A program made the position numbers and the translations under genes. Positions 380 through 58,431 of a DNA stretch of 64,000 nt are shown here, one piece after another. This DNA is from a virus: positions 1-64,000 of the IMG/VR virus record IMGVR_UViG_3300045988_166055. One strand, written 5' to 3'. The notes below the pieces were generated by a model. It searched no databases. It was given only the letters and a program-made list of their open reading frames with translations, and was not told the origin of the DNA. Position 1 is the stretch's first letter; the number at the start of each line of letters is the position of its first letter.

Positions 380-898
380 ATGTCTGAATCAAACAAATCA
401 AGGACAGTTGAAGAGCTGTCAGGAGTAACTCTACTTGGCAACAATAACACCAAGTATAGCTGCGACTACAATCCAGAAGTTCTAGAAACATTTGTAAACA
501 AGCATCCTGACAACGATTATGTTGTTACATTTGATGCTTATGAGTTCACGAGCAAGTGCCCAAAGACAGGTCAGCCAGATTTCGCAAAAGTTGTAATCAG
601 CTACATCCCTAACGAAAGAATGGTTGAAAGCAAATCTCTTAAGCTCTATCTTTTCTCTTTCCGAGAGCATGGTGATTTTCATGAAGATTGCATGAACATT
701 ATCATGAAAGACTTGATAAAGCTTATGGATCCAAAGTACATTGAAGTGAAGGGTATTTTCTCTCCCAGGGGTGGTATATCGATCTTTCCTTTCGTAAACT
801 ATGCAAATCCAAAATTCAATTATCAGGATTTTGCAAAATCTAGAATGCTTGATGTACTTAGAGATGCAAGCAACAGAAAAGTAAGATACGACATGTAA
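380..898 (+). CDS. queF: NADPH-dependent 7-cyano-7-deazaguanine (preQ0) reductase QueF, unimodular type
   Basis: 172 aa. [13 protein letters not shown] (catalytic Cys) and [12 protein letters not shown] (QueF motif). SD AAGGAG lies 9 nt upstream. Confidence 0.9.
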
Positions 899-916
899 TC
901 ATAGGAGGAGAATTTT

Positions 917-1612
917 ATGAAGAAAGCACTTGTTTTGTCGTCCGGCGGTGTAGATTCTACCACTTGCGTAGGTATTGCGGTAAAAGATGTAGGTTCAGAG
1001 AATGTGAGCACCGTTTCTGTCTTTTATGGGCAGAAACACAACAAGGAACTTGAATGCGCGGAAAAAGTAGCAGAATTCTACAATGTAAAGCATTATGTTC
1101 TTGATTTGTCAAATGTTCTTCAGTACAGCAATTGTTCTTTGATGAAGAACAGCACGGAAGACATTCCTATGATGAGTTATGCAGAACAGATTGAGAAGAA
1201 CGGTGAAGGCAAAGTTTCTACCTATGTTCCCTTTAGAAACGGCTTGATGCTATCTGCAGTGGCTGCTCTGGCTCAGTCTATCTATCCTGATGATGATGTA
1301 GATATTTACCTAGGTGCTCATGCGGACGATGCAGCTGGCAGAGCTTATGCAGATTGTAGTGAAGAATTTACTTCTGCAATGAATACAGCTATTGTAATTG
1401 GCACATATGGTAAAGTTAGAGTAGTTGCGCCTCTTGTTAATCTAAATAAAGCAGGAGTAGTCAAGCTTGGCTTATCTATTGATGTACCTTACAAATACAC
1501 ATGGAGTTGTTATTCAGGCGGAGATAAGCCTTGCGGCCATTGTGGTACTTGCATTGATAGGGCTAAAGCGTTTGAAGCAAACGGAATTTCCGATCCGGCT
1601 TTGGAGGACTAA
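917..1612 (+). CDS. queC: 7-cyano-7-deazaguanine synthase QueC
   Basis: N-terminal PP-loop LSSGGVDSTT and C-terminal Zn motif CGHCGTCIDR. 231 aa. Confidence 0.9.
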   Translation: MKKALVLSSGGVDSTTCVGIAVKDVGSENVSTVSVFYGQKHNKELECAEKVAEFYNVKHYVLDLSNVLQYSNCSLMKNSTEDIPMMSYAEQIEKNGEGKVSTYVPFRNGLMLSAVAALAQSIYPDDDVDIYLGAHADDAAGRAYADCSEEFTSAMNTAIVIGTYGKVRVVAPLVNLNKAGVVKLGLSIDVPYKYTWSCYSGGDKPCGHCGTCIDRAKAFEANGISDPALED

Positions 1613-1615
1613 AAT

Positions 1616-2053
1616 ATGTATGCAGTTAAGACAAAAGTTTCATTTGAAGCTGCTCATCGTTTATACAATGTAGACACTTATTCATCCGAATGTAGAGAGA
1701 ATCTTCACGGCCATTCGTACAAAGTTGAAGTTCTTGTTGGTGTAAATGATTTGAATAACGCTGGAATGGTCATTGATTTCAAACTTCTGAAGAAGATAAT
1801 CAAGGATGTAATTGAAGACAAATATGATCATTCTTGTATTCTTAGAAATACTGACCCCATTGCAGCTGTAATTGAAGAAAACTGTAAAAAGGTTATTCTT
1901 GTTGACGAAAGTCCGACTGCTGAGTGGATGGCTAAAGAATTCTATGAAATGATTCAATCTAGAATTAACACGTTTTCTTCTGATTTACATGTTATTTCAG
2001 TAGGAGTACAAGAAACAGAAAATAACATTGGATATTATCTTCCGGAGGAATAA
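1616..2053 (+). CDS. queD: 6-carboxy-5,6,7,8-tetrahydropterin synthase QueD (PTPS fold)
   Basis: FEAAHRL...LHGHSYKVEV His-triad pattern of QueD/PTPS, plus operon context. Confidence 0.85.
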   Translation: MYAVKTKVSFEAAHRLYNVDTYSSECRENLHGHSYKVEVLVGVNDLNNAGMVIDFKLLKKIIKDVIEDKYDHSCILRNTDPIAAVIEENCKKVILVDESPTAEWMAKEFYEMIQSRINTFSSDLHVISVGVQETENNIGYYLPEE

Positions 2054-2055
2054 AT

Positions 2056-2697
2056 ATGAAAGTTGTTGAAATATTCAAAAGCATTGATGGTGAAGGTAAG
2101 CGGGCTGGTATGCCTGCAACCTTCATTCGACTTGCTTTCTGTAATCTTAGATGCAGTTACTGCGATACTTCATATGCATTTGACGATAAATGTGCTGAAG
2201 ACATGACAGTTGATGAAATTGTCCATAAGTGTATTGAGATGGATTGTCCGTCTATTACACTTACAGGTGGAGAACCTCTAATTCACAAAGATGTCGAAAT
2301 TCTGCTTGCTGAACTTGACAGAAACAACTTTGATGTAAATGTAGAAACAAATGGAACAATTGACCCATCTTATTACCATAAGCTAAAGAATGTTTGGTTC
2401 ACTGTTGACTACAAGTCTCCATCTAGTGGATGCGAGAAGGCAATGAAGCCTGAAGCATTCAAAACACTTCGTCCTCAAGATGTATTGAAATTTGTAGTAG
2501 GAAGTGATACAGATCTTGAAGCAGCACTGAAAGCTATTCAAGAATACATACCTTCTGCTCAGATTTACTTCAGCCCTGTATTTGGATATGATGCAAAGAA
2601 CATTGTAAACTTTCTTCTTTTCAATAAGTTGAATAGCTGCAAAGTTCAGCTTCAGATCCACAAGTACATATTTGATCCAACTGCCAGAGGTGTATAA
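2056..2697 (+). CDS. queE: 7-carboxy-7-deazaguanine synthase QueE (radical SAM)
   Basis: EIFKSIDGEGKRAG...CNLRCSYCDT (CX3CX2C cluster). 213 aa, with operon context. Confidence 0.9.
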   Translation: MKVVEIFKSIDGEGKRAGMPATFIRLAFCNLRCSYCDTSYAFDDKCAEDMTVDEIVHKCIEMDCPSITLTGGEPLIHKDVEILLAELDRNNFDVNVETNGTIDPSYYHKLKNVWFTVDYKSPSSGCEKAMKPEAFKTLRPQDVLKFVVGSDTDLEAALKAIQEYIPSAQIYFSPVFGYDAKNIVNFLLFNKLNSCKVQLQIHKYIFDPTARGV

Positions 2698-2699
2698 AT

Positions 2700-3257
2700 A
2701 TGAATGATTATTATGTATATATCTGGAAAACAATAGATACAAATGAGATATTTTATGTAGGTTCAGGCCATGGCATCAGATACAAAGATTCTGATAGGCA
2801 ATCTAGAAGTCCTGGATGGTGGGACTTCTTCTGCAGTCATGGTCAGAAAGCTAATTGTACTAGTAGCATACTCATCGAAGGGCTTACTAAACAGGAAGCA
2901 TTGTCTGCAGAATCTGACATTACTAAGCGATACAGGGAAGAAGGTCACCCTATTGTAAATGTTAATGACGGATCTCATAGACCTATAGAATTGCAGGAAC
3001 AGATAAACATTAAGCTGCGAAAGCCTAAATCAGAAGAAGGCAGATCTAACATTGCTAGAGCTAAGCAAGGTAACAAAAATCCTATGTATGGAAAGACTCA
3101 CGGAGTTAGTAAATCTACTCGCACAAAAATAGGAAACAAAATGAAAGGTAACAAGAACGCAGCTGGTCGAGTTATTTCTCCAGAGACAAGAGAAAAGCTG
3201 AGAAAAGCTGCACTAGCTCGAGAAGCAAGAAAGCGGCAAGCAACGGGAGGAATATGA
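2700..3257 (+). mobile_element. GIY-YIG homing endonuclease gene, free-standing between queE and folE
   Basis: N-terminal YVYIW...IFYVGSGHG (GIY...YIG). C-terminal NUMOD3-like repeats (KNPMYGKTH, GNKNAAGRVISPETREK). It overlaps neighbours by ATGA-type junctions. Confidence 0.8.
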
Positions 3258-3481
3258 TGGACAAAGAAAAAGTACAAGAAGCTGTAAGAAATCTGCTTGT
3301 TGCTTTAGGAGAAGATGTTACAAGACCTGGTCTAGTAGAAACTCCTAAAAGAGTAGCAGGTTATTGGGAAGAACTTCTTGAAGGTGAAAACTACACTAAC
3401 AAGGAAATAGCTGATATGTTCAGGAAGGACTTCCAAGTAAGCTATGATTCAATGGTCATCAAAGAGGGTGTAGTAGCATGA
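3254..3481 (+). pseudogene. truncated duplicate of the GTP cyclohydrolase I N-terminus (folE'), 75 codons, stops before the CEHH catalytic motif
   Basis: By hand alignment about half of ~58 positions are identical to residues ~5-62 of the full folE at 3478 (shared motifs LxALGxD, GLxxTPxRVA, ELxEG, YTNxEIA). The ORF ends ...IKEGVVA* with an ATGA overlap into folE. Confidence 0.7.
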
Positions 3482-4053
3482 AAAATATTGATAAAAATAA
3501 AATTGAAGAGCTTACAAGAGAGTTCTTGATAGCTTTAGGCGATGATCCTGACAGAGAAGGATTGAAGAAGACTCCAAATCGAGTTGCAAGAATGTGCGAT
3601 GAATTGTTTGAAGGGATGACTTATACAAATGAGGAAATTGCACATAAGTTTGATACATTCTTCGAAGATCTAGAAACTGGAGATCTTGTAGTTGAAAGTA
3701 ATATCCCTATTCATAGTTTTTGTGAACATCATTTAATGTTGATGTATGACATGACTGTTGCAATTGGATACATTCCAAACGGAAGAGTAATTGGATTGAG
3801 CAAGCTAGCAAGAATTGCAGATATGGTGAGCAAGAGACTTCAGCTTCAAGAAAAAATTGGAACTGACATAGCAGAAATTCTGTCAATGATTTTAAGAACT
3901 AAAGATATAATTGTAGTTATTCAAGGGAAGCACGGATGCATGACAGCACGTGGCATAAGATCAAGAGAAGCAGTAACTAGAACTGCTACACTCCGAGGAA
4001 GATTTGAATCAGATTCGGATCTAAGGTCAGAGTTCTATTCGCTTATCAAATAA
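3478..4053 (+). CDS. folE: GTP cyclohydrolase I FolE
   Basis: 191 aa. [29 protein letters not shown] motifs. Confidence 0.9.
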
Positions 4054-4060
4054 ATTATTT

Positions 4061-4119
4061 ATCACCTCGCTTTTATGTTTAACCTTTACTAGAAACATAA
4101 CAGCGAGGTGATTATTTTG
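4061..4119 (+). terminator. long hairpin after folE; the 3' arm contains the SD and start of the HNH gene
   Basis: 4061-4080 pairs with 4093-4112 (19 bp, one mismatch, 12-nt loop), followed by TATTTTG. The 3' arm includes GAGGTG 4105-4110 and GTG 4108. Confidence 0.6.
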
Positions 4120-4974
4120 ATTAAACTTAGTAAGCATGAATGGCTTGAATTGCAAAAATTCTTAGGGCATGATCCAAACAACGACGGAGAATGGTCTTTG
4201 ATTCCATCAGATGGATGTAAATATGTAGTAAATTCTAAAGGTACATGTATAGTAAGACTTGCGTCCAGAGACAAGAGAGGATATTTTCTTAAATCAAGAA
4301 AGCTAAATTTCATGAAGGATGATCACAATTATGTATTATGCAACATAAATAATGAGTCAATACGAGTTCATAGGGTTGTTGCACAAGCTTGGTTGTTTGA
4401 TTATAGAGAGGATTTGACAGTCAATCACAAAGACGGAAAACATGATAATAATGATATATCCAATTTAGAGATGATGACTGGTCCTGAAAACACTAATCAT
4501 TACCACACATCAAAAGCTCATGAAGAACAGCGAATAAGCGACTATTCGCATCACGGAGACACTATAAGAGGAAGGATACATATAACAAACGGGTATGACG
4601 GTAAAATGATACATGAAAATGAACCAATACCTGATGGATGGTATAGAGGAAGACCGCAATCAATGAAAGACAGTCTTTCAAGTTCAATGATTGGAAATGT
4701 TCCATTTAACAAAGGAAAAAAAATAATAACAAATGGAAAAATCAGCAAATACATATCCGAATCAGATGATATTCCTGAAGGATGGAAGAAAGGCTCACAA
4801 CTTAATTTATCTGAAGCTCAGATAGAAAGGAAAAAAGAAATTATGTCAGGTAGGATATATGTTACTAAAGGGGCTATTAACAAAAGGATATATCCAGATG
4901 AGATAGAAAAATATATTTCGGACGGTTGGAGAAAAGGGATGTATAGCAAGCGAAGTAAAAAAATAACTATATGA
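4108..4974 (+). mobile_element. HNH homing endonuclease gene, free-standing
   Basis: VNHKDGKHDNNDISNLEMMTGPENTNHYH (HNH). Three C-terminal repeats of (I/V)T(N/K)G-x-I-x-IP(D/E)GW(Y/K/R)(R/K)G. The start may be GTG 4108 or, more likely, TTG 4117 (6 nt after GAGGTG). Confidence 0.8.
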
Positions 4975-5078: not shown

Positions 5079-5540
5079 ATGAAAACAGTTAGAATCTATA
5101 CAGATGGGTCGTGTTTGGGAAATCCAGGTCAAGGCGGTTGGGCAGCTTGTTTGAAGTGCGATAAACAATACAAAGAAATATCAGGTGGAACAAAACATAC
5201 AACGAATAATGCAATGGAGCTTACAGCTATTTTAGAAGCTCTCAAATGCTTGAAGAAATCTCCGCTGATTGTTGAAATCTATTCTGATTCAAAATATGTT
5301 GTTGATGCTTTCAGGAAAGACTGGATAAGTAATTGGAGAGCGAAAGGATTTCTAAGAAATCCGTTTGATCCAAATTCTGAATACATACCTAATGCCAAAA
5401 TTTGGATAGAAATTCTAAAAGAAGTAGACAAACATGATGTTTATTTCAATTGGGTAAAAGGTCATTCGGGAGATGTAATGAATGAACGATGCGATCATCT
5501 GGCCAAAGCTGCTGCACGGTGGTATCGTGATAATGGATAA
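5079..5540 (+). CDS. rnhA: ribonuclease H (type 1)
   Basis: IYTDGSCLGNPG, NNAMELTA, YSDSKYV, WVKGHSG..NERCDHLA: the DEDD residues in canonical order. Confidence 0.9.
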   Translation: MKTVRIYTDGSCLGNPGQGGWAACLKCDKQYKEISGGTKHTTNNAMELTAILEALKCLKKSPLIVEIYSDSKYVVDAFRKDWISNWRAKGFLRNPFDPNSEYIPNAKIWIEILKEVDKHDVYFNWVKGHSGDVMNERCDHLAKAAARWYRDNG

Positions 5541-8303: not shown

Positions 8304-9053
8304 ATGATAGTCAATATAGGATTACACATCAACACATTAACTAATGATCTGCGCCAAGCTCGCAATGATCGCAACCTATCAAGAAAGGAATATTTATCAA
8401 TGGATGTAGTAAAGAATATGCGTGGAAGTATGTGGTGGTTGAAAGACGAATTCGATAAGTATAAAGGTCAAAGAGGAATCCTTAGAGGTTCTAGACCAAT
8501 TATCATTATCAACAATCCTGCAAATGATTACAATGATTGTACTATCACTTATCTTCCTATCTCTAAGTGCGAATCTCATGCAGGAGATGACAGTCGAATT
8601 CAAATGTTCTACGAAGTACCTATTCAAATTCCTGGAAACAAATCAAGCTATGTATGTTGTAATAGTATTACAACTACAACTACCACACATCTAGGAGAAT
8701 ATATCGGGCAAATTTCAGAAAGTAAGCTAAAAGAAGTTGAAAACGAACTTATTCGTTATCTTTCTCTTTCTATTTCTGAAAAAGTAGTTACACGAGAGGT
8801 AGTAAAGGAAGTTAAGGATCTAGAAAAGACGCCTAAAACAACTGCTTTTTCTATTACAGATGCTGTCGCTTGCCCTGAGCTCAAAAAAGTATATTCTAAT
8901 TGTACTGAGATGGCCAAAGAACTTGACTGTTCTCCTGCATCTATCAGTAAAGCAAGTAGATGGGGAAGTAAGCTGATGCACAAATATACTGTGTTTAAGG
9001 TAGCAACTGCTACTGGAAATTATATTGATAAAACTAAGGAGGAAAACAAATGA
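8304..9053 (+). CDS. PemK/MazF-like domain protein with a C-terminal HTH-like region
   Basis: GSMWWLKDEF...RGSRPIIIINN...ITYLPISKCES...SSYVCCNSITTTTTTHLGEYIGQISESKLKEVENELIRYLSL follows the PemK/MazF SH3-like barrel pattern. The start is uncertain (ATG 8401 is an alternative). Confidence 0.4.
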   Translation: MIVNIGLHINTLTNDLRQARNDRNLSRKEYLSMDVVKNMRGSMWWLKDEFDKYKGQRGILRGSRPIIIINNPANDYNDCTITYLPISKCESHAGDDSRIQMFYEVPIQIPGNKSSYVCCNSITTTTTTHLGEYIGQISESKLKEVENELIRYLSLSISEKVVTREVVKEVKDLEKTPKTTAFSITDAVACPELKKVYSNCTEMAKELDCSPASISKASRWGSKLMHKYTVFKVATATGNYIDKTKEENK

Positions 9054-10018: not shown

Positions 10019-10036
10019 AAAATTTCAAAAAATACA

Positions 10037-10066
10037 AGAGATGGGCTAAAAGTCCATCTCTTTTTT
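10037..10066. terminator. bidirectional terminator between convergent genes
   Basis: AGAGATGG 10037-10044 pairs with CCATCTCT 10054-10061. A-run upstream, TTTTTT downstream. Confidence 0.7.
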
Positions 10067-10077
10067 ATTTATGTAAA

Positions 10078-10842
10078 TCAGAAAGCTTCTCTAAGATCTT
10101 GGCTTGACCTTAATCTAGAATAAAGTATTATTTCTGCTGTTTTTAGTTTACCACGAATAGTCCTATCATCTATTCCATAGATATCACAAATTTCAAAAAT
10201 ATCATTGTTTGTAAGTTTTCTTTCTCTATCTATCATCTCTCTTATCAATAATTCTTCTACTGTATCATATTTATCAGTAAGTTCTTCATCAAATTTGCTA
10301 AAAGATCCTTCTTCTGAAGATAAAAATGGTTCATGAGTGTCTAAATCTGCTATATAAAGTGTTCCAAATATGGCCTTCAAAGAATTCATCTTTTCGGCAG
10401 GTAAATTTAATCTAGGATCCATAAGATCATCGTACTTTACTTGCCCCCAGTGTTTTCCAAGTTGTTTTCCGACCTCCATACATAGAGAACGACGTATAGA
10501 ATATTTAACTTCATTCAGCTCTCTTTCTATCATCTCACCTACACGGAGTTTGAAAAACACTGTAAAAGAAAGATCGCATCGGTATCCTTTATGAGTTTCA
10601 TCACCCTGCCATAGATACCACCACCAGCATTCGCAAAAGTGCAGCAAGGCTGACTGAAGCTTATCTTCATATGTAACAGAAGTATTGTTTATGAATGTAT
10701 GCGATGCTATGTACCCGAAAAAAGAATAGTTAAGTTCAATTACTCTGTCACGAACATCTGTACGTTTCATTCTAAGTTCTTTTTCTTGAGGAAGAGATTG
10801 ATATAGTCGTATAGTTTCTTCTTTGATTTCTTTCATATTCAT
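10078..10842 (-). CDS. sigma-70-family-like transcription factor (putative phage sigma)
   Basis: Region-2-like RDRVIELNYSFFGYIASH...YEDKLQSALLHFCECWWWY...FTVFFKLRVGEMIEREL. Region-4-like HTH LTNNDIFEICDIYGIDDRTIRGKLKTAEIILYSRL. The track start 10851 is TTG; ATG 10842 is more likely. Confidence 0.5.
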   Translation of the reverse strand: MNMKEIKEETIRLYQSLPQEKELRMKRTDVRDRVIELNYSFFGYIASHTFINNTSVTYEDKLQSALLHFCECWWWYLWQGDETHKGYRCDLSFTVFFKLRVGEMIERELNEVKYSIRRSLCMEVGKQLGKHWGQVKYDDLMDPRLNLPAEKMNSLKAIFGTLYIADLDTHEPFLSSEEGSFSKFDEELTDKYDTVEELLIREMIDRERKLTNNDIFEICDIYGIDDRTIRGKLKTAEIILYSRLRSSQDLREAF

Positions 10843-10935
10843 AAACAACAACTCACTTTATTTTTCAATTTTGTATTCGCACCTAAAAACACAACCTTTG
10901 ATAATCTTGAATGCACAATTATTGTCTTCAATATT

Positions 10936-10964
10936 ATTATATTTAATAGAAATAGGAAAGTCAA
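10936..10964 (-). promoter_or_regulatory. consensus sigma-A/sigma-70 promoter (early), drives the sigma-like gene
   Basis: The minus strand reads TATTGACTTT-cctatttctattaaa-TATAAT. The -35 TTGACT is 10964-10959, the spacer is 17 nt, and the -10 TATAAT is 10941-10936. Confidence 0.7.
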
Positions 10965-11119
10965 TAGAATTTTTGAATATTTATTTGATTTTATTTATTT
11001 TATCTATTTGAAAACTGTAGAATAAAATTAAAGTATTAACGAATCGTAAATTTTTTATAAATTTTTGTTTCATGCCTATTTTGATAATAATCATAAGATG
11101 TGCCAAATTCAAGAAGTTC

Positions 11120-11560
11120 ATTATGAAATATTCAAATATCTAAATAAGTAGATATTCAAATTGAAAGAAATTGAATATTTCATTTAATTTTAATTTTCAA
11201 TAATATTTCAAATTGATGTAGTAATATTTCATATTCTTTCAAATTCGTTAAAATTTACAATTTTTGAATATTTCATAATCTTTCAAATTAGTTGTAAATA
11301 TCACTAAATATTTCAATTTGATAGAAATTGGTTAATTTTATAATATTCCTGAATATTTCAAATTCACTAAAATTTTCAAAATATTTCAATTTGTAAATAT
11401 CACATAATCTTTCATATTTATTCAATTTGAAGTAAAATGTAAATTCCATTGTTTTATTCAAATCTTCATATTTTAGAGTATTCAGTAAAATTGAAAGAAA
11501 ATGAAAATTTCAAATTCGAATAAAATTAAAATTTGATTTCAATTTGAAAGATTTTCCAAT
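11120..11560. repeat. AT-rich array of dispersed AATATTTCA(A/T)(A/T)TT repeats (iteron-like)
   Basis: Copies or variants start at 11127, 11152, 11174, 11202, 11223, 11267, 11307, 11352 and 11380, with TTTCAAATT half-sites at 11237, 11281, 11508 and 11538. TTGTAAATATCAC occurs at 11292 and 11391, and ATAATCTTTCA at 11276 and 11404. No ORF. Confidence 0.6.
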
Positions 11561-11808
11561 TTTCATCTCGCATATATAATATCTTTGAGATAATAGAGTG
11601 AATGAAATGAACGATATAAAAGAGAAAAAGAAATAATTGAAATAAGGATATAATAGCGCCTCGCCACTCTAGAAATAAAAATAAGCTCGCAAAGCTCGCA
11701 TAGAGCGCTTTACGATGATAGCATAAATTTGCTTTTTATGGATGAAATCGAACCGCATTGACCTTCATACTAAGAAACAAAAAATTTCAAAATTTTCTAA
11801 CAAAGGTA

Positions 11809-11837
11809 TTGACTTTTCGACAAAAAGGTATTATACT
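11809..11837 (+). promoter_or_regulatory. consensus sigma-A/sigma-70 promoter (early)
   Basis: GGTATTGACTTTT...TATACT. The -35 TTGACT is 11809-11814, the spacer is 17 nt, and the -10 TATACT is 11832-11837. TGTAG follows 5 nt downstream. Confidence 0.7.
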
Positions 11838-11939
11838 ATGCGTGTAGGTTAAGTTAACTGGTGAACAACTCTTGATCAGTTAGCTAAAGTAGCTGTAGCG
11901 AAGAGCTCACCTAGTTGATATAGATAGACCATTGAAGAA

Positions 11940-11949
11940 GAATCGTTAT
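11940..11949 (+). promoter_or_regulatory. GAATCGTTAT motif site inside the long leader
   Basis: Exact 10-mer, 326 nt upstream of ATG 12266. Confidence 0.35.
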
Positions 11950-12009
11950 TCTACTTGCACCTGGTCATAAAATTTCAAATAAAATACAGAGTCAAAGTTG
12001 GGTCACATG

Positions 12010-12238
12010 GAGTGCCAATTTTGTACTCCCTATCAACTAATTCAAATTACTATTGAGAGAGTTGACTGCTTGATATCCGTCAGGGTATCTGGCAGGTCAG
12101 TAGGGATTTGGATTAGCAGGAAAACAGCAGTTTAGTAAGATAGGGCGGAGACGCTTAAGCGTTACTTCGTCGTCAGGTGTTCGCTGCACATGACAGCTAT
12201 TCTGAACTCTGCTGGTAGTGAGTGCAAAATTGACACTC
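12010..12238 (+). ncRNA. candidate structured RNA domain (leader element or stable ncRNA), class unknown
   Basis: Outer helix GAGTGCCAATTTTGTACTC 12010-12028 pairs with GAGTGCAAAATTGACACTC 12220-12238 (19 positions, 1 mismatch, 1 G-U). Nested inside are a hairpin at 12063-12099, the helix CAGCAG 12125-12130/CTGCTG 12209-12214, and hairpins at 12144-12171 and 12179-12207. The segment is locally GC-rich. Confidence 0.4.
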
Positions 12239-12265
12239 TATTTGCTTTATACGGAGGAAATTTGA

Positions 12266-13414
12266 ATGGATATTTATACAGCATTGAAATCAGCTTCAAA
12301 GCTTGAAAATTTCATACTTAGCGAGTTTGATTTCAAAAAAGGAATGTACAGCACAACATTCGCAAAGCTGAATTCTATTTCTGAGAAGTGTGAGATGATC
12401 CATTCAAAGATCAAGTCTTGCGTGAAAGTTGATAAAGATATTCATGAAGAAGATCCTATGAAGAAAGCTATTGAATTATCAAACCAGCTTAATGAAATTC
12501 TTGATAGAATATCTTCAAATGGTTCGACCATATCGTCTTCATATGATGATATGGTCAATTTGCATGATACTGTTAAATGCTGTGCAGATAAGCTCGGGAT
12601 AGATACAAGTGAACATGATACACCTAAATCAGGGTTAGATGAAAAATTAGATATGATACTGTGTATGCTGAAGGGTGGCCAAGAACATATAGTTTCATGT
12701 AATAAAGACATTATTCTAAAAGATGGTACACATGAACTTGAGTCAGAAGAAAATGATAATTCTAAAGAAATCCAACCAGCTGCATCAGAGAGAGCACAGA
12801 TGCCTAAGAAAGATATTTTGAAACTATATTCTAGTACAATTAAATCAGCAAAAATTGTCTCTACTGGATACAAAGAATCTGATATGTTGAAGGACATCAT
12901 CTGCAGATGGTTTGAAACAAGATTTTCAATGGCTAAGAAAAACAAGTTTACATATAACTTGGCAGATATGTCTAAGTGGGTTCAAAGTATTACAATTGCA
13001 TTTTCGGAGGCTTATTTGTCAGGCAATATGGATGAATTCAATAGAAATTTTGATTCCTGGATAGAAGATGTCAATTCCGGTGAAAACAAATACCCTATTC
13101 CATACTTTGTGAAAGATGCGTATGATAACCCATCCGAAGAAGCATTCAAAGAGTTTACATTCTCTGTTTGGGAGCTCGTCTTAACTAGAGCTTTTAATAA
13201 CCTAATAATGTTCAAGTCAATCCCCATAAAGTACATTTATCAGGAATCTTGTTTCTTAGGAATAAATGATGTAGTAAACTATCTTGATAGGCTTTACATG
13301 GATAATCAAACCAAATATCGAACTTCTGAGTATTCAAAACCTTATCATGAAGATAACTTTTTCAGAAGCAAACCATATCTCACTTGTTTAGAGGAGGTGA
13401 ATGCAGATGTCTAA
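12266..13414 (+). CDS. hypothetical early protein
   Basis: 382-aa ORF with SD ACGGAGGAAA upstream. No family recognised. Confidence 0.6.
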   Translation: MDIYTALKSASKLENFILSEFDFKKGMYSTTFAKLNSISEKCEMIHSKIKSCVKVDKDIHEEDPMKKAIELSNQLNEILDRISSNGSTISSSYDDMVNLHDTVKCCADKLGIDTSEHDTPKSGLDEKLDMILCMLKGGQEHIVSCNKDIILKDGTHELESEENDNSKEIQPAASERAQMPKKDILKLYSSTIKSAKIVSTGYKESDMLKDIICRWFETRFSMAKKNKFTYNLADMSKWVQSITIAFSEAYLSGNMDEFNRNFDSWIEDVNSGENKYPIPYFVKDAYDNPSEEAFKEFTFSVWELVLTRAFNNLIMFKSIPIKYIYQESCFLGINDVVNYLDRLYMDNQTKYRTSEYSKPYHEDNFFRSKPYLTCLEEVNADV

Positions 13415-16613: not shown

Positions 16614-17612
16614 ATGGATATAAATATTGTAATTGATAAATTGGCTGAGCAAGGTATGCTCAGGCCTAATAGAAAAATAGGTGATTATTATAGTTGCTAC
16701 TGTCCGTTTCACAATGATGGTAATGAAAGAAAACCTTCTTCAGGTATTCTTCTTCACGACCAATATAGAAACGGACAGATGTATCCTGCTGGTTGGTTCA
16801 ACTGTTTCACCTGTCATCATTCTTATCAGCTTCCTGATTTTATTTCAGAGCTTCTGAAAATTCATTCAATTCATCAAACAGGCGAGGCCTGGCTTGAAGA
16901 AAATATTGAAGGATACAATCATGAAGTAGAGTTTGAGCCGCTTATTCCCGAAGATATGATGAAGGGAGTAAACAACGCATTTGCAATAATGTCTATTAAG
17001 GACAAGATGAAAACCGAGAAACCTTCATATATCTCTGAACAAGAGCTTGCTAAATATAGATTTACAGTCGATTATATGTATTCACGAAAATTGACTGATG
17101 AAGTTATTGAAAAATTTGATGTAGGGTTTGATGCAAATTTCCTTCCTACAGGTAGAAAGAAAAAGATTCCTTGCGTAACTTTTCCAGTTAGAGATGTTAA
17201 TGGAAACACGCTATTCATATGTAGAAGGTCTGTTGAAGGAAAAGCTTTCTATCTTCCTTCAAAAGTTGAAAAATCAGTATATGGATTGTATGAACTTCCA
17301 AGAGGATGCGAGTCCGTAATAATAGCAGAAAGTTGTTTCAATGTTCTAACATGCTATGTTTATGGTTATCCTGCTGTAGGACTTCTTGGTACCGGTACGC
17401 CTAGGCAAATTGCTCAACTAAAAAGACTTGGTGTTAAGGAATTTGTACTTGGAATGGATCCAGACGAAGCAGGGGATTCGGCTTGTAGACGATTGAAAAA
17501 TGCCCTGAAGGATGTAGCTCTTGTAAGACGAATGGTAGATATTCCTATTGGAAAGGACATAAACGATCTTTCTAAAGAAGAATTCGTTAATATATACAAC
17601 AACAGAATTTAA
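16614..17612 (+). CDS. dnaG: DNA primase (CHC2 zinc finger + TOPRIM)
   Basis: CYCPFHNDGNERKPS...FNCFTCHH; TOPRIM IIAESCFNV and LGMDPDEAGD. Confidence 0.85.
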   Translation: MDINIVIDKLAEQGMLRPNRKIGDYYSCYCPFHNDGNERKPSSGILLHDQYRNGQMYPAGWFNCFTCHHSYQLPDFISELLKIHSIHQTGEAWLEENIEGYNHEVEFEPLIPEDMMKGVNNAFAIMSIKDKMKTEKPSYISEQELAKYRFTVDYMYSRKLTDEVIEKFDVGFDANFLPTGRKKKIPCVTFPVRDVNGNTLFICRRSVEGKAFYLPSKVEKSVYGLYELPRGCESVIIAESCFNVLTCYVYGYPAVGLLGTGTPRQIAQLKRLGVKEFVLGMDPDEAGDSACRRLKNALKDVALVRRMVDIPIGKDINDLSKEEFVNIYNNRI

Positions 17613-49814: not shown

Positions 49815-49879
49815 TAGATGGGACAATTAAAATATTCAAAGATGGAATCTGCACAATCCTGAAGATGAATTGAAAAAAT

Positions 49880-49920
49880 AAATAGAAAGAGCAGACATTA
49901 GTTGTCTGCTCTTTCTATTT
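49880..49920. terminator. bidirectional terminator, perfect 18-bp stem
   Basis: AAATAGAAAGAGCAGACA 49880-49897 pairs with TGTCTGCTCTTTCTATTT 49903-49920, with a 5-nt loop. A-rich 5' flank and T-rich 3' flank. Confidence 0.85.
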
Positions 49921-49921
49921 A

Positions 49922-50578
49922 TTATTTGAATTCATATACAGCCGTACCAAGGTCATGATATGGAGAATATCCTAAATTTATCATGTCTGATTCTGTCCAG
50001 TTACTTTGTCTTCTAGAATCATTTGATATGAAATTTACTCCGTTCCACCACCATTTCTTTCTTTGAGTATCTCTTTCAGATTTCATTCCAATTTCCTCGT
50101 AGTCCTCAAAATTATCAAAACAAAAATTTACATAGGAAACAATATTGTACAGACCATAATCAGATGCAAACTTTGATAATATAGAAAATCCATTCTTAAC
50201 ATAGTATCCCGGAAGCATATACATTCTAGATAGTTCAGCATAGTATCGTTTATCTTTTGATTTTTTGAAAGTCATCATGCAGTATATTACACTATCCTTA
50301 ACTAACCCTATAGCTAGAACTGTTCCTTTTGCAGCCTTTAGCGGATAGTACTCATTCATCCAATTATCTGAAATATCTTTATTCAATCTGTATATCTTCA
50401 AATCTTCACCATTTATAATAGTATGATATTCTGGTTTCTTGTAGTAATATCCTAAGAAATTTCTTTTCTTTTCATAAGAAGTCAATCTTTTTGCTTGAAC
50501 CCAATCTAATTTTGAAACATTGTCTACCCCATATCTACCCAAGTTTGTTTGTATTCGTTTATCATTTGATGTGTTCAT
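49922..50578 (-). CDS. antisense-oriented hypothetical protein, possible GNAT/Mom-like acyltransferase fold with an N-terminal YGV-DN motif
   Basis: ATG 50578 lies 9 nt after AAGGAGG on the minus strand. WMNEYYPLKAAKGTVLAIGLVKDSVIYCMMTFKKS...YAELSRMYMLPGYYVKNGFSILSKF loosely follows a GNAT-like pattern. The function call is weak; the gene call is solid. Confidence 0.3.
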   Translation of the reverse strand: MNTSNDKRIQTNLGRYGVDNVSKLDWVQAKRLTSYEKKRNFLGYYYKKPEYHTIINGEDLKIYRLNKDISDNWMNEYYPLKAAKGTVLAIGLVKDSVIYCMMTFKKSKDKRYYAELSRMYMLPGYYVKNGFSILSKFASDYGLYNIVSYVNFCFDNFEDYEEIGMKSERDTQRKKWWWNGVNFISNDSRRQSNWTESDMINLGYSPYHDLGTAVYEFK

Positions 50579-53760: not shown

Positions 53761-53785
53761 ATAAATTTTGATGGAGGTAACAAAT

Positions 53786-54730
53786 ATGCCTGCTAATGTT
53801 GAAACAATGTTTAGCGTACGTGAGGTTCCTTGGCACGGTCTTGGAACTATTGTCCAGGAAGCTCCTACTTTTAAAGATGCACTTCACCTTGCTGGTCTAG
53901 ATTGGAATGTAATTTCTAATCCTATTTTCACTGCAGAGGGGAAGGAAATTGAAGGTTGGAAATCAAATGTTAGAGACTCTGACAACACTGTTTTAGGAAT
54001 TGTTTCTAACAAGTACAAGATTGTTCAGAATGCTGAAGCTTTCGAATTCACTGACGAGCTCATTTCTGACGATGTAAAGTATGAGACAGCAGGATCTCTT
54101 AGAAACGGAAAGCAGATTTGGCTTCTTGCTAAGATGCCTAAGGTTAAGGTAGTTGGAGACGATGTTGATCCGTATGTTTGCTTCACTAACAGCCATGATG
54201 GCCTAGGATCTATTAAAGTTTGCATGACGCCTGTTCGTGTTGTTTGCAATAACACACTTAACCTTGCTCTTAGCAATACACGGCGCTGCTGGACGACTCG
54301 TCATGTTGGAGATATCAATAGTAAGCTAGAAGAGGCAAGGCGTACGCTGGCGCTCGCTAACAGCTACATGGAAGATCTAAGCGTTGTAGGGGATAGACTT
54401 GCTAATCTTACTTTCAATCAGTCTGAAGTAGAGCAGTTTGTTGATCTTCTTTTCAAAGTTGACGACGATGCAAGTGATAGGGTCAAGAACAACGCTCAGG
54501 ACATGAAAGACGGATTTATGTATTGTTACTTCGCTCCTGACATCTTGAAGTTCAAAGATACTGCATGGGGAGTTGTAAATGCTGCTGCTGATTTTGCAGG
54601 GCATGCTCGCCCTAGAAGAGTTACTGCTAAGACAAATGAAACTCGTTGGGCAAATACAATGAATGGTAACATCATTGTTGACACTACTTTCCTTCACATG
54701 ATGAAGCTTCTCAATAAGGAGGTCGGTTGA
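53786..54730 (+). CDS. DUF932 / phage-plasmid TIGR03299-like protein
   Basis: FSVREVPWHGLGT...LAGLDWNV...GKQIWLLAKM...VCFTNSHDGLGSIKVCMTPVRVVCNNTL. Confidence 0.65.
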   Translation: MPANVETMFSVREVPWHGLGTIVQEAPTFKDALHLAGLDWNVISNPIFTAEGKEIEGWKSNVRDSDNTVLGIVSNKYKIVQNAEAFEFTDELISDDVKYETAGSLRNGKQIWLLAKMPKVKVVGDDVDPYVCFTNSHDGLGSIKVCMTPVRVVCNNTLNLALSNTRRCWTTRHVGDINSKLEEARRTLALANSYMEDLSVVGDRLANLTFNQSEVEQFVDLLFKVDDDASDRVKNNAQDMKDGFMYCYFAPDILKFKDTAWGVVNAAADFAGHARPRRVTAKTNETRWANTMNGNIIVDTTFLHMMKLLNKEVG

Positions 54731-55735: not shown

Positions 55736-56080
55736 ATGATAAAGTTTAATGGAATTCATGTCTTTCCTGATGGATCGGTTTTCATAAATGCAAATTTTTA
55801 TGAAACTCCATATTCAGTTGCAATTTTTTCTAGTGAAGAGAGCATTGGCCTATATAACCTTGAAACAGAGAAAATGCTGATCCATGACGAAGATGGATTC
55901 AAATGGATACCTATTGACTTCGCTATTCACGATAATTTCTATAAGTGCTCAGAAGTTGTTAAAAGACTAATGAAGATTAAAGTAGCAGATCTGATGGTTG
56001 ATGACAAAAAGGGTGACTACTTTAGAACTTTCGTAGAAAATCTTATCAAACAATCTGATCCGGATTTCGACGAAGATTGA
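55736..56080 (+). CDS. hypothetical protein
   Basis: 114-aa ORF after CAGGAGA. Confidence 0.5.
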   Translation: MIKFNGIHVFPDGSVFINANFYETPYSVAIFSSEESIGLYNLETEKMLIHDEDGFKWIPIDFAIHDNFYKCSEVVKRLMKIKVADLMVDDKKGDYFRTFVENLIKQSDPDFDED

Positions 56081-56129
56081 ATTGTAATAAGTAAATATTA
56101 TATCTTCAAGGCAAGATCTTGTGTCTATA

Positions 56130-56156
56130 GGCTGGTCAAATAACCCTTGACCAGCC
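56130..56156 (+). terminator. hairpin upstream of nrdD (terminator or regulatory)
   Basis: GGCTGGTCAA 56130-56139 pairs with TTGACCAGCC 56147-56156 (10 bp). The T-tail (TTATATAC) is weak. Confidence 0.45.
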
Positions 56157-56199
56157 TTATATACATATACAACGATACTAACTAGGAGGTAGTTGCTAA

Positions 56200-58431
56200 A
56201 TGAGAATAATTAAACGAAGCGGAGTAGAGGAAGATTTCAACTCCGCTAAAATTATATCTGCGTTAAATAGAGCAAATGCAGAGGTTGAGGGTGACGACAA
56301 GTTATTTCAATATGACGTCGAAGGAATTGCAAGGGCAATAGAGCAAGAAGCAAAGACATGCGACAAACCTCTAAATGTAGAAGAAATTCAAGATATGGTA
56401 GAAGATAGCATAATGTCTTTAGGAAAGTACGCATTGGCTAGAAAGTACATTAAATATCGTCAAGTTCATTCAATGAGTAGAGACAAGTATGATGACTTGA
56501 TGAAAGCAGTTGCAGACAAACTGCTTGGAAGAAAAATTGACAATCAGAATGCAAATGTAGACGAACATTCTTTCGGGGGAAGAATGGGAGAAGCTAACGA
56601 TGTAGTTTGCAGACAATTTGCACTTGACTTTCTTGTTTCTGAAAAGGCAAAGAAGAATCATATTGACAATCGTGTATACATCCATGACCTTAACAGCTAT
56701 GCTGTGGGAAATCATAATTGTCTTAGCGTACCATTTGACGATTTGCTTGCAAACGGATTCATTGTAAAGCAGACAGATGTTAGACCTGCAGGGTCATTGA
56801 ATACAGCTTTTCAGCTTGTAGCAGTCATATTTCAGTTGCAATCTTTGCAGCAGTTTGGCGGAGTTAGCTCAACGCATCTTGACTGGACAATGGTTCCTTA
56901 TTTAAGAAAGTCTTTCTATAAGCACTTCATCAAAGGTGTAAAATATATTGAAAATTTTAGGGGCAAAGGCTTAGACATATATAACAAAGAGATGTCAATT
57001 GACGACAAAGCTTACCACCATTTTCCAAAGGCTTATCAATATGCTATGGACATGACAAAAGAAGAATGTCATCAAGCAGTAGAGGGAATGTACCACAACT
57101 TAAATACACTTCAAAGTAGATCGGGAAACCAGTTGCCGTTTACATCTATCAATTACGGTACATGTACTTTGCCAGAAGGAAGAATGGTAACAAAGGCTGT
57201 TCTTGATCTGTCAATTGAAGGCCTAGGTAAATTAAATAGAACATCTATTTTCCCTTGCGGAATATTTCAGTGTATGAAGGGTGTAAATAGACATCCTGGA
57301 GATCCAAATTATGACCTATTCAGACTTGCATTGAAGTCTACAGCATTAAGACTGTATCCAAATTATTGTAATGTAGACTGGTCTGGAAATGCAGGATATG
57401 ACGTAAATGATCCTAGAACATATTTTTCTACGATGGGCTGTCGAACAGCTAACGGATACGACATAAACGGATTAGGGCAGCTAAAAGATGGAAGAGGAAA
57501 TATTTGCCCTACAACTATAATTCTTCCTACTTTGGCTATGGAAGCTAAAAAGAAAATAGAAAAATTAGCTTATTTGTCAAATTCTTCAGCATCTGAATAT
57601 GATTTGAAATCAGAATTCCTTTCTATTTTAGATGAAGCAATATCAGATGCAAGAGATTCATTGATTGAAAGATACAAATGGATTTGCAGTCAATCTCCGG
57701 ATTCAGCTAAGTTCATGTATGAAAACAATTTGATGGCAGGATATGTTCCAGAAGAAGGAATTGAATCAGCGCTTAAACATGGGACTCTTGCCATTGGGCA
57801 AATTGGACTTGCCGAAACTCTTCAGATACTGATTGGATGCGACCATACAACTAGAGAAGGTATGGAGTTTGCACAAGAAATTGAGTATCTTTTCAACAAA
57901 CGATGCAAGGAATTCAAAGAGGGTTATCACCTTAACTTTGGAGTTTATTATACACCTGCTGAAAATCTTTGTTACACCGCAATGAAGAAGTTCAAGGAAA
58001 AGTATGGCGTAATAAAAGATGTATCTGATAAGGAATTCTTTACTAATTCTATACATGTTCCTGTTTGGAAGCATATTGATCCATTTGAAAAAATAGACAT
58101 AGAATCACAGCTTACTGGATATTCAAATGCTGGATGTATAACTTATGTAGAGTTAGGAAGCAGCTGTAAACACAATCTAGATGCTCTTGAGACGCTTGTC
58201 AATTACGCAATGGATAAAGATATTCCTTATTTCGCAATAAATGTACCAAATGATCAATGTATGGAATGCGGATATTGCGATGAAATGAATGATACTTGCC
58301 CTAAATGCGGTAGCAAGGATATCAAGAGGCTGAGAAGAGTAACTGGCTATCTAACCAACGATTACAAAACATCTTTCAATAAGGGTAAGCAGCAAGAAGT
58401 AGAAATGAGAGTAAAACACGATTCCTTCTAA
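56200..58431 (+). CDS. nrdD: anaerobic ribonucleoside-triphosphate reductase NrdD
   Basis: N-terminal ATP-cone IIKRSGVEEDFNSAKI. C-terminal CMECGYC...CPKCGS zinc site and glycyl-radical motif RRVTGYL. 743 aa. Confidence 0.95.
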   Translation: MRIIKRSGVEEDFNSAKIISALNRANAEVEGDDKLFQYDVEGIARAIEQEAKTCDKPLNVEEIQDMVEDSIMSLGKYALARKYIKYRQVHSMSRDKYDDLMKAVADKLLGRKIDNQNANVDEHSFGGRMGEANDVVCRQFALDFLVSEKAKKNHIDNRVYIHDLNSYAVGNHNCLSVPFDDLLANGFIVKQTDVRPAGSLNTAFQLVAVIFQLQSLQQFGGVSSTHLDWTMVPYLRKSFYKHFIKGVKYIENFRGKGLDIYNKEMSIDDKAYHHFPKAYQYAMDMTKEECHQAVEGMYHNLNTLQSRSGNQLPFTSINYGTCTLPEGRMVTKAVLDLSIEGLGKLNRTSIFPCGIFQCMKGVNRHPGDPNYDLFRLALKSTALRLYPNYCNVDWSGNAGYDVNDPRTYFSTMGCRTANGYDINGLGQLKDGRGNICPTTIILPTLAMEAKKKIEKLAYLSNSSASEYDLKSEFLSILDEAISDARDSLIERYKWICSQSPDSAKFMYENNLMAGYVPEEGIESALKHGTLAIGQIGLAETLQILIGCDHTTREGMEFAQEIEYLFNKRCKEFKEGYHLNFGVYYTPAENLCYTAMKKFKEKYGVIKDVSDKEFFTNSIHVPVWKHIDPFEKIDIESQLTGYSNAGCITYVELGSSCKHNLDALETLVNYAMDKDIPYFAINVPNDQCMECGYCDEMNDTCPKCGSKDIKRLRRVTGYLTNDYKTSFNKGKQQEVEMRVKHDSF

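Follow-up and report, generated by a model that had tools for sequence, protein, structure and literature searches.

In phage lambda, the late leader gives a 194-nucleotide (nt) '6S' transcript from pR', with tR', a terminator that requires antitermination, being read through by Q. In the N leader, a hairpin that is an RNase III site lies ahead of the ribosome-binding site of N and modulates N translation. ColE1 RNA II is a structured pre-primer RNA of several hundred nucleotides that is made from a strong promoter and used together with RNase H and a Pol I-type polymerase. In the Lactococcus phage c2 (Ceduovirus), PE1-T is a non-coding origin transcript whose length and structure matter (PMC7150918). 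RNase III of Bacillus subtilis is described as cutting the stems that flank ribosomal RNAs (rRNAs), the precursor of the small cytoplasmic RNA (scRNA) and early messenger RNAs (mRNAs) of phage SP82 (PMC4838370; PMC1935012). Here, we describe a structured RNA leader that precedes the replication operon of an uncultured gut phage (~145 kb, 36% GC (guanine plus cytosine)). It is encoded in a 64,000-nt stretch of DNA, positions 1 to 64,000 of IMG/VR virus record IMGVR_UViG_3300045988_166055, which is referred to below as the window and from whose first letter all positions are counted. The element defines an RNA family that Rfam lacks; its boundaries are clear and its helices can be tested. Its conserved feature is a long closing helix together with a host-type promoter, and neither the sequence nor the nested interior is conserved in the same way.

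The leader folds around a single long helix

Transcription from a host-type early promoter is predicted to start at approximately 11843-11845, and the coding region of g1, the first gene of the replication operon, lies about 420 nt downstream (Table 1). The whole + strand leader folds at -143 kcal/mol with z-scores (z) of -5.8 to -6.1 relative to dinucleotide shuffles, versus z-scores of -2.2 to -2.4 for its - strand in the same comparison. When 250-nt segments from both strands of the 64 kb were ranked with composition regressed out, segment 12001-12250(+) placed first among 1,022 (z = -5.5, with the next best at -4.3). The minimum-free-energy fold consists of a closing helix around two branches. 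This closing helix is interrupted by three single mismatches and encloses 177 nt.

Much of this architecture had been drawn by a first-pass annotation made by a model from the sequence alone. The region is indeed GC-rich, as claimed there, with 45.5% GC at 12000-12199, whereas the spacer upstream has 17-20% and the genes on either side ~33-36%. The annotated outer helix of 19 positions (12010-12028 with 12220-12238) is confirmed and grows to 29 pairs in the minimum-free-energy fold. The CAGCAG/CUGCUG helix and the two hairpins that it was said to enclose are likewise all part of that fold. Two of the earlier claims need revision. The bulged hairpin retains its GAUAUCC/GGGUAUC pairing but loses its GAC/GUC closure, which is replaced by pairing of CUAUUGA with UCAGUAG. 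The replacement pairing lies within 12037-12056/12097-12116, the helix that carries both of the compensatory changes described below. Similarly, the structured leader of ~420 nt that had been proposed is upheld for its 3' 242 nt (12004-12245) but not for its first ~160 nt, in which pairs are not depleted of variation (p = 1.0).

The Shine-Dalgarno (SD) sequence of g1 is not sequestered in the predicted fold. A pairing of the SD region with 11974-11980, comprising seven AU-rich pairs, was considered and rejected because a variant at 11972 breaks it in half of the sequences.

Because the structure used to evaluate natural variation was the fold of the window sequence alone, this variation could not have shaped it. 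The sample from the lineage of the window comprises 14 full-length sequences plus one partial sequence (L036), with g1 identities of 78-99%. The leader occurs in a single orientation and with zero indels in all 14 full-length sequences, and its conservation is approximately equal to that of the neighbouring genes, not higher. Within the core (12004-12245), variable sites make up 14 of the 184 positions that pair but 15 of the 58 that do not (Fisher p = 0.0007). The corresponding counts for 11843-12003 are 13 of 92 and 9 of 69 (p = 1.0), and several of the substitutions in this 5' part disrupt pairs of its predicted first hairpin.

Pairing extends to 97.2% of cells in 11 sequences from the lineage, the closing helix shows zero variation, and two pairs change in a compensatory manner (12037:12116 from C-G to U-A, and 12052:12101 from A-U to G-C). 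Where only one side of a pair changes in helices 2, 3 and 6, wobble pairing mostly accommodates the substitution, as it does at 12053, 12091 and 12098. In hairpin 6, for example, 12151:12162 changes from A-U to G-U and 12148:12167 from G-U to G-C, and the variable positions of its tetraloop (12155-12157) and its bulge (12163-12164) adjoin invariant stems. Conservation of the helices in related phages, on which the first-pass annotation had made its proposal depend, is therefore what we find, in that helices are kept, two pairs are compensated and substitutions avoid paired positions. The covariation within this lineage is modest, as is the divergence, and it agrees with the structure without constituting proof by itself.

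The helix and its promoter recur in related phages

Relatives identified through DnaB (64-70% identity) reside on contigs of 130-177 kb that have the same gene order and the same large intergenic gap. A blastn comparison of the window leader with the syntenic loci of these other lineages (designated by L numbers) yields no similarity. When a covariance model was built from the core, its only match in the window was the core, and the other lineages gave none; with filters off, the model aligns the closing helix of the nearest lineage (L022) alone, and does so on both strands. Exact-pattern scans of IMG/VR and of a metagenome collection recovered the same lineage only, and the interiors of different lineages have in common only trivial 7-mers whose positions are not conserved.

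Nevertheless, the syntenic leaders that were compared first fold with z-scores of -5.6 to -7.7, each through a long, near-perfect helix that surrounds a structured interior and stops 7-20 nt upstream of the SD. In most lineages, the distance from the end of the helix to a strong SD is about 10-25 nt. Lineages L025 and L030 are 89% identical overall and yet differ on both arms at ~17 pairs of the outer helix, where the pairing is still perfect.

A wider sample was obtained by searching with a profile of the divergent 257-amino-acid gene that borders the gap, which led to 53 IMG/VR loci and from these to 30 distinct leader clusters. A helix of 20-45 pairs is present in 22 of these 30 lineages, with interiors that span 3 to ~210 nt. 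The leader is preceded by a promoter matching at least 10 of 12 consensus positions in 24 lineages. Transcripts with z < -4 are found in 18 of these 24 promoter-bearing lineages (median -4.9, minimum -10.7), compared with none of the six promoterless lineages (median -0.3; Fisher p = 0.0016). Lineage L040, for instance, has two copies of the phage-type motif GAATCGTTA discussed below and has neither a host-type promoter nor the structure. The minimal form of the element is found in L039, where a plain hairpin of 27 pairs with a 6-nt loop is followed by the U-rich sequence UUGAUUUUUAU and then by the SD.

The interior is thus dispensable across lineages. The comparison amounts to a natural experiment in which the closing helix and its position are kept and the interior is free to change, and since the helix and the promoter recur under these conditions, the selected feature is the long helix coupled to the host-type promoter. 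A riboswitch or other ligand-sensing leader was rejected for the same reason, as the lineages have no aptamer core or interior motif in common and the interior can shrink to the 6-nt loop of L039.

Pairing operates at the level of RNA

The composition of the pairs distinguishes between RNA and DNA as the molecule in which pairing matters. The longest helices of the 22 lineages contain 584 Watson-Crick pairs, 67 G·U pairs, 8 A·C oppositions and 18 others (binomial p = 1e-12). Folds of seven leaders yield 99 G·U pairs and one A·C single mismatch on the + strand (a single mismatch being one unpaired position per strand), versus 39 and 11, respectively, on the - strand. If the repeat were retained as duplex DNA, G·T and A·C should be equally frequent on the + strand, and the excess of G·U therefore makes readings as an operator, an inverton or a cruciform unlikely. 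The pairing acts in the sense-strand RNA. Single-stranded + strand DNA would be the other molecule to consider, and RNA is the economical reading because the element is transcribed in the sense direction from a consensus promoter.

The idea that the arms serve as a DNA-level inverted repeat has some attractions. They might be operators for a dimeric regulator, as the first-pass annotation had allowed for its two 19-mers, might bound a segment that inverts, or might form a cruciform or hairpin that marks a replication origin. Both 19-mers are quasi-palindromic and their pair is found only here in the window, some lineages have arms that are perfect repeats of 24-30 bp, the - strand folds of L022, L025 and L030 come near those of the + strand, and the element adjoins a putative origin. 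A duplex-DNA site nevertheless leaves the imbalance of G·U over A·C unexplained in both datasets. Moreover, the arms are unrelated between lineages despite orthologous neighbouring proteins, the interior is structured as well, and the uniform orientation of the 14 full-length sequences is the opposite of what inversion would produce. We therefore give DNA-level function very little chance of being correct.

Specific forms of this explanation were also pursued and set aside. As an operator, the repeat has just two full copies, and a 13-mer copy at 10866 is within chance expectation in an all-against-all repeat search. As an inverton, it lacks an inverted copy of its interior, and the sequences are co-linear in the lineage of the window and in the L019 and L025 groups as well. 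No recombinase domain was found among the Pfam matches of 60 open reading frames (ORFs) in the 64-kb window of this ~145-kb genome.

The leader is non-coding and matches no known RNA family

Between the promoter and the ATG at 12266, only ORFs of 45 amino acids or fewer are present, in keeping with the earlier statement that there is no credible ORF in this interval. The candidate raised there, a 42-codon ORF at 12007-12135, is uninterrupted in eight relatives. Even so, the 19 sites at which it varies are distributed 6/6/7 across the three codon phases, the changes are almost all non-synonymous, and no SD precedes the ATG at 12007. A coding function for this and the other small ORFs was rejected because there is no codon-level purifying selection and no SD.

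Searches with Rfam 15 at the gathering score gave no matches anywhere in the window. With permissive filters applied to 11600-12400, the best matches had E values of at least 3 and fell on the promoter region rather than on the structure. The models searched include those of the large RNAs ROOL, GOLLD and raiA as well as 6S, Y RNA, riboswitches and EAR, none of which reached its gathering threshold, and a scan for transfer RNA and transfer-messenger RNA genes found none. The first-pass annotation had recognized no known class here and had suggested a new structured RNA, be it a cis-regulatory leader, an element bound by protein or a stable phage non-coding RNA, without choosing among the three. 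The fold, the variation within the lineage, the recurrence in other lineages and the negative Rfam result support that suggestion. For comparison of scale, a catalogue of 10,006 viral structured-RNA candidates contains motifs 29-151 nt long (PMC10690425).

Host-type and phage-type promoters are combined in different orders

The TTGACT-17-TATACT promoter identified by the first-pass annotation is confirmed by a consensus scan, and both hexamers are unchanged in 11 sequences of the lineage. Each syntenic relative that was compared first has a near-consensus promoter 270-460 nt upstream of g1.

A second promoter-like element, GAATCGTTA, is found in 10 copies in the window versus 0.56 expected. 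All copies are on the + strand, intergenic and upstream of an SD and a start codon, typically some tens of nucleotides 5' of the latter. The motif is also frequent in relatives (e.g. 8 copies per 17 kb of L017). Judging from this distribution, GAATCGTTA is probably the promoter element of a phage-specific middle or late transcription programme, and it could help to work out how transcription is programmed in these uncultured phages. A second transcript from the copy at 11940 would begin just 5' of the core domain. This copy also accounts for the 43-nt invariant block in which it resides, for which RNA structure is not needed as an explanation.

The placement of GAATCGTTA relative to the structure varies. 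The motif precedes the structure in the window, whereas in L049 and L068 it is located 3' of the structure and before the SD, giving the order host-type promoter, non-coding RNA, second promoter, genes. In L015, L017, L022, L052 and L081, it is located upstream of the host-type promoter. This variation indicates that the structured RNA is a module tied to the host-type promoter, and g1 mRNAs need not all contain this RNA.

These arrangements bear on whether the structure is a translational or mRNA-stability operator for g1, in which a phage protein (possibly the g1 product) would bind the lineage-specific interior, or the bulky 5' structure would block a 5' exonuclease and in this way set how much of the replication proteins is made. 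Such a role might be expected from the short distance between the helix and a strong SD in most lineages, and the fast divergence of g1 parallels the turnover of the RNA. In L049 and L068, however, mRNAs that start at the promoter motif between structure and SD would not contain the structure at all. Given also that the SD is unsequestered, that the structure follows the promoter rather than g1, and that L039 manages without an interior, we see only a small chance that g1 is the target.

A possible post-initiation gate

The function that we tentatively favour, as a possible rather than an established one, is that the long helix is a post-initiation gate, i.e. a terminator-like element, an RNase III element or both, that uncouples the early promoter from the replication operon. 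According to this model, host RNA polymerase would transcribe the non-coding early leader (~420 nt) from the promoter at 11809-11837, and the emerging 3' arm would zip onto the 5' arm to complete the closing helix. Two outcomes, which might both apply, can be envisaged. Where a U-run follows, the helix could act as an intrinsic terminator or pause, such that many transcripts end as a discrete RNA of ~0.3-0.4 kb. Alternatively, host RNase III could find an ideal substrate in the helix and cut ~10-25 nt before the SD, thereby separating leader and replication mRNA. The replication genes would then depend on read-through or processing, plus the phage-type GAATCGTTA promoter. We infer termination, cleavage and the regulatory consequence from the following features.

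A U-run of at least four nucleotides is present at the 3' edge of the helix in 10 of the 22 lineages, compared with 13% of control windows (p = 1.6e-4). Examples in relatives are UUUUUU (L019), UUUUUUAUUUU (L022) and UUUUUUUAUUU (L030), which resemble the phage's own terminators, such as that at 10028-10070. On sequence grounds, the tract UAUUUGCUUUAU of the window appears to be a degenerate version of these runs. Upstream regions of other genes in the window have a mean T content of 31%, and long T-runs in them accompany terminators. With respect to RNase III, the closing helix of the window has 29 pairs with three single mismatches, compared with the ~20 or more nearly uninterrupted pairs (about two helical turns) required. 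A role for this enzyme is proposed because helices of at least 20 pairs are what RNase III recognizes.

A clear terminator of this phage group is available for reference in the window itself. The hairpin at 49859-49941, between convergent genes, has 39-nt arms that are 90% complementary and a 5-nt loop. With its GC-rich core and its A and U tracts, it is a bidirectional terminator and serves as a model of the phage's own terminators.

Several observations weigh against a gate. The U tract in the lineage of the window is weak, with a longest run of three, and a consensus terminator scan of 10700-12400 found none. Since a U-run is missing from approximately half of the lineages, a mechanism common to all of them cannot be termination. 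Short loops are the norm in intrinsic terminators, and the stem in the window, although stable, encloses a structured interior of 177 nt. No alternative (anti-terminator) pairing was found in the leader, and neither a phage RNase III nor a recognizable antiterminator is encoded in the 64-kb window. Furthermore, the GC enrichment of the interior and its structure-preserving substitutions hint at a function beyond that of a helix-only gate.

An alternative is a trans-acting early non-coding RNA. Host polymerase would make it at once and in abundance, with a high content of double-stranded RNA (dsRNA). Its 3' end would come from termination at the U tract, or else RNase III would release it at the closing helix in the manner of rRNAs and the scRNA. 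The RNA would then titrate or mislead a host factor, be it RNase III, a defence that senses dsRNA or some other protein that binds RNA. The structure goes with the strongest host-type promoter and not with the SD of g1, and L049 and L068 have it as a unit of its own, set before the promoter of the gene. Stable small RNAs usually have this build, in which the two ends form a closing helix, here with a 3' U-run in half of the lineages. The interior is GC-enriched and changes in a structure-preserving manner, and fast sequence turnover is what an arms race would produce. On the other side, interiors without any motif common to the lineages, and as small as a 6-nt loop, mean that a target could recognize generic dsRNA only. 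In addition, 6S, Y RNA and the other known families are unmatched, and no partner protein has been identified. We therefore regard a trans-acting product as distinctly unlikely.

If the gate model is correct, these phages use a simple and recurrent design for timing, in which a long-range helix neutralizes a constitutive host-type promoter and a phage-type promoter takes over. Dozens of lineages would then have arrived at this design anew, each with sequences unrelated to the others.

The intergenic region as a possible replication origin

The same locus is present on seven IMG/VR contigs from one metagenome as well as on ENA and Logan contigs (e.g. from pig gut). A BLAST comparison of the leader region and g1 with 50,697 phage records gave no matches, and the nearest cultured phages by PolA are those of Bacillus, Clostridium and Streptococcus, at ~35% identity. 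The leader resides in a 1.4-kb gap between the divergent 257-amino-acid gene on the - strand and the long + strand operon, which further encodes clamp-loader subunits and a RecA-like protein (Table 1). The gene order of this replication module is kept in relatives. Within the module, g1 evolves fastest, with 22-28% identity between lineages versus ~40% for g2 and 65-70% for DnaB. The divergent gene, g1 and g2 have no match among Pfam, PHROG and PDB sequences, including when cross-lineage profiles were used.

The divergent protein is 48-71% identical between lineages and has an invariant Trp-rich motif, CECWWWY. Our guess is that this early gene beside the proposed gate encodes a candidate regulator, perhaps sigma-like or an antiterminator.

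From the divergent gene towards g1, the gap contains a - strand host-type promoter, a repeat-rich spacer of 16-18% GC, the + strand promoter and the GC-richer leader, such that divergent host-type promoters flank the AT-rich spacer. A spacer of this kind (13-25% GC) is found upstream of the promoter in all lineages examined, with repeats that differ between them. It may be a replication origin or a regulatory array to which a regulator binds.

Table 1. Positions of the leader, its structural elements and the surrounding features in the window
Feature	Position	Strand	Details
Host (sigma-70/sigma-A)-type early promoter	11809-11837	+	TTGACT-17-TATACT; consensus scan
5' part of the transcript	11843-12003	+	Spacer with predicted local hairpins, then A-rich linker; comparative data not supportive
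GAATCGTTA, phage-type promoter motif	11940-11948	+	Within 43-nt invariant block 11929-11971
Core structured RNA domain	12004-12245	+	242 nt, 93 pairs, 7 helices; minimum-free-energy fold -100.9 kcal/mol
Helix 1 (closing), 5' arm	12004-12035	+	Pairs with 12213-12244; 29 pairs including 4 G·U/U·G
Helix 1 (closing), 3' arm	12213-12244	+	Runs into U-rich tract
Branch 1	12037-12116	+	Helix 2, 12037-12056/12097-12116; helix 3 hairpin, 12066-12078/12083-12095
Branch 2	12125-12211	+	Helix 4, 12125-12135/12202-12211; helix 5, 12139-12143/12197-12201
Branch 2 hairpins		+	Hairpin 6, 12144-12154/12159-12171; hairpin 7, 12172-12180/12186-12194
U-rich tract UAUUUGCUUUAU	12239-12250	+	8 of 12 U, longest run 3; at and just past helix base
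SD (GGAGG) and ATG of g1	12254-12268	+	
g1, first gene of the replication operon	12266-13414	+	ATG at 12266
Operon after g1		+	g2, 197-amino-acid gene, DnaB (15159), primase (16614), PolA (21468)
AT-rich repeat spacer	11140-11570 (wider 10900-11600)		16-18% GC; direct and inverted copies of ATATTTCA and TTTCAAATT
Divergent host-type promoter	10964-10936	-	
Divergent 257-amino-acid gene	10078-10851	-	No family match
GAATCGTTA copies	5018, 7936, 8224, 11940, 20245, 24076, 28856, 52013, 53740, 58927	+	

This setting raises the question of whether the leader is an origin-of-replication transcript that activates the adjacent AT-rich region, or that forms an R-loop or primer to be processed by RNase H and extended by PolA. 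The site is intergenic and divergent, lies beside the repeat array and directly 5' of the DnaB, primase and PolA genes, and belongs to a phage that encodes both RNase H (5079-5540; in relatives, its gene lies between those of DnaB and primase) and a family-A polymerase. The layout in L049 and L068 matches that of the c2 origin, where the non-coding region lies between PE1 and PE2. The pattern of conservation is also like that of the c2 types, with identity of >90% inside each type and no relationship from one type to another (PMC7150918). Other facts are not readily reconciled with this role. The PE1-T region of c2 is not unusually structured (z = -0.19), and the defining feature of the window RNA therefore has no counterpart in c2. 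The AT-rich region is upstream of the promoter, outside the transcribed part, and a primer role explains neither a sense-strand helix of 20-45 pairs nor a U-run. Finally, six lineages without the element (L040 and five others) still carry the replication genes. An origin transcript is the main rival to the gate, but in our estimation it is unlikely.

A broader proposition is that these gut Firmicute phages (130-177 kb) use their strongest host-type promoter to flood the cell, directly upon infection, with a fast-evolving RNA of which only the helix of 20-45 pairs is conserved. This RNA, and not control of g1, would be the point, either as a dsRNA decoy in trans or as a transcript that activates or primes an origin served by RNase H and PolA of the phage. 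In the former case, the RNA would be a decoy or saturating substrate for a host dsRNA-recognizing enzyme or defence sensor. Even with its two branches combined, we consider this proposition doubtful. If true, it would define a new class of early RNA in abundant gut phages.

Other features of the window and of related phages

Two further segments of the window show notable folding, and neither has a match in Rfam. One is at the start of the primase gene (16626-16875; z = -4.3 on the - strand and -3.1 on the + strand), and the other is just 5' of nrdD, which encodes an anaerobic ribonucleotide reductase (56001-56250; z = -3.2 on the + strand). A smaller structure is the 20-nt inverted repeat at 4061-4112 (95% complementary, 12-nt loop), the 3' arm of which holds GAGGTGAT, the SD of an HNH gene (4108). 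This hairpin could sequester the SD of that gene.

A cluster of 7-deazaguanine (queuosine-precursor) genes is present at 380-4053, coding for QueF-like, QueC, QueD/PTPS, radical-SAM QueE and GTP cyclohydrolase I proteins. This gene set implies modified DNA bases. Homing-endonuclease-like genes are found within and after the cluster (NUMOD3 at 2700-3257 and HNH at 4108-4974). The gene at 8304-9053 encodes a 249-amino-acid protein with a MazF/PemK-like endoribonuclease domain and is located just 5' of a DUF932 gene, and a second DUF932 gene is found at 53768-54730. An anti-defence gene at 55003-55710 matches Tad3, a type I Thoeris inhibitor (E = 8e-25).

Among the relatives, L039 encodes a 502-amino-acid TROVE-domain (Ro60-like) protein downstream of the primase gene (10275-11783), and none was found in the window. 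Proteins with TROVE domains usually partner with non-coding RNAs that are like Y RNA. TnpB (IS605 OrfB) genes lie beside the divergent gene in L025 (1-474) and L030 (532-1626). The DnaB proteins of L019-L021 and L030 are 628-673 amino acids long and have an insertion of ~180-220 amino acids that is possibly an intein, with none annotated, and the PolA genes of the L019 group contain intein and HNH domains. Mobile elements thus mark this phage group.

Comparison with known systems

The leader resembles those of lambda in that a strong constitutive promoter and a short non-coding leader with a hairpin are found just before a long one-directional operon. In contrast with the lambda leaders, to which it has no homology, it has a long-range helix around up to ~210 nt and belongs to a phage whose host is probably a Firmicute-type anaerobe. 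Neither factors like Q or N nor nut or QBE elements were recognizable.

Compared with ColE1 RNA II, the leader is likewise a structured RNA from a strong promoter, and the phage encodes RNase H and PolA. Unlike RNA II, with which it shares no homology, it has no identified G-rich or C-rich segments that would form a hybrid, and its transcript runs into an SD and an operon.

The resemblance to the c2 origin consists of a non-coding divergent intergenic segment with a first, early host-type promoter and a second promoter nearby (PMC7150918), although the lineages studied here differ in whether the second promoter motif or the structure comes first. The c2 segment was rejected as a structural relative because it is unstructured, with the z-score given above standing against approximately -6 here. 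It has no helix of 20-45 pairs, and origin function has been shown for c2 alone.

Firmicute terminators and attenuators also combine a stable stem, a U-run and, directly after these, the SD of the first gene, and the U-runs of L019, L022, L025, L030 and L039 match the terminators of this phage group. The stems described here are 2-4 times longer than usual, however, the 'loop' can be a structured domain of 36-210 nt, and the window has a degenerate U tract. Neither a sensor nor a competing anti-terminator fold was found in the leader.

Among RNase III stalks, those of 16S and 23S rRNA, the scRNA precursor and SP82 early mRNA are similar in that host RNase III cuts a long helix, which is formed either by the sequences on both sides of a structured RNA or as a long hairpin of a phage early transcript (PMC4838370; PMC1935012). 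The present element differs in that approximately half of its lineages have a U-run, which is not required at RNase III sites, and in that the enclosed RNA is not conserved; cleavage is a prediction here.

These comparisons indicate that the build of the element is unusual, being a long-range and often terminator-like helix around an interior of variable size. Its mode of action likely falls within known kinds, namely leader terminators, RNase III sites and origin transcripts.

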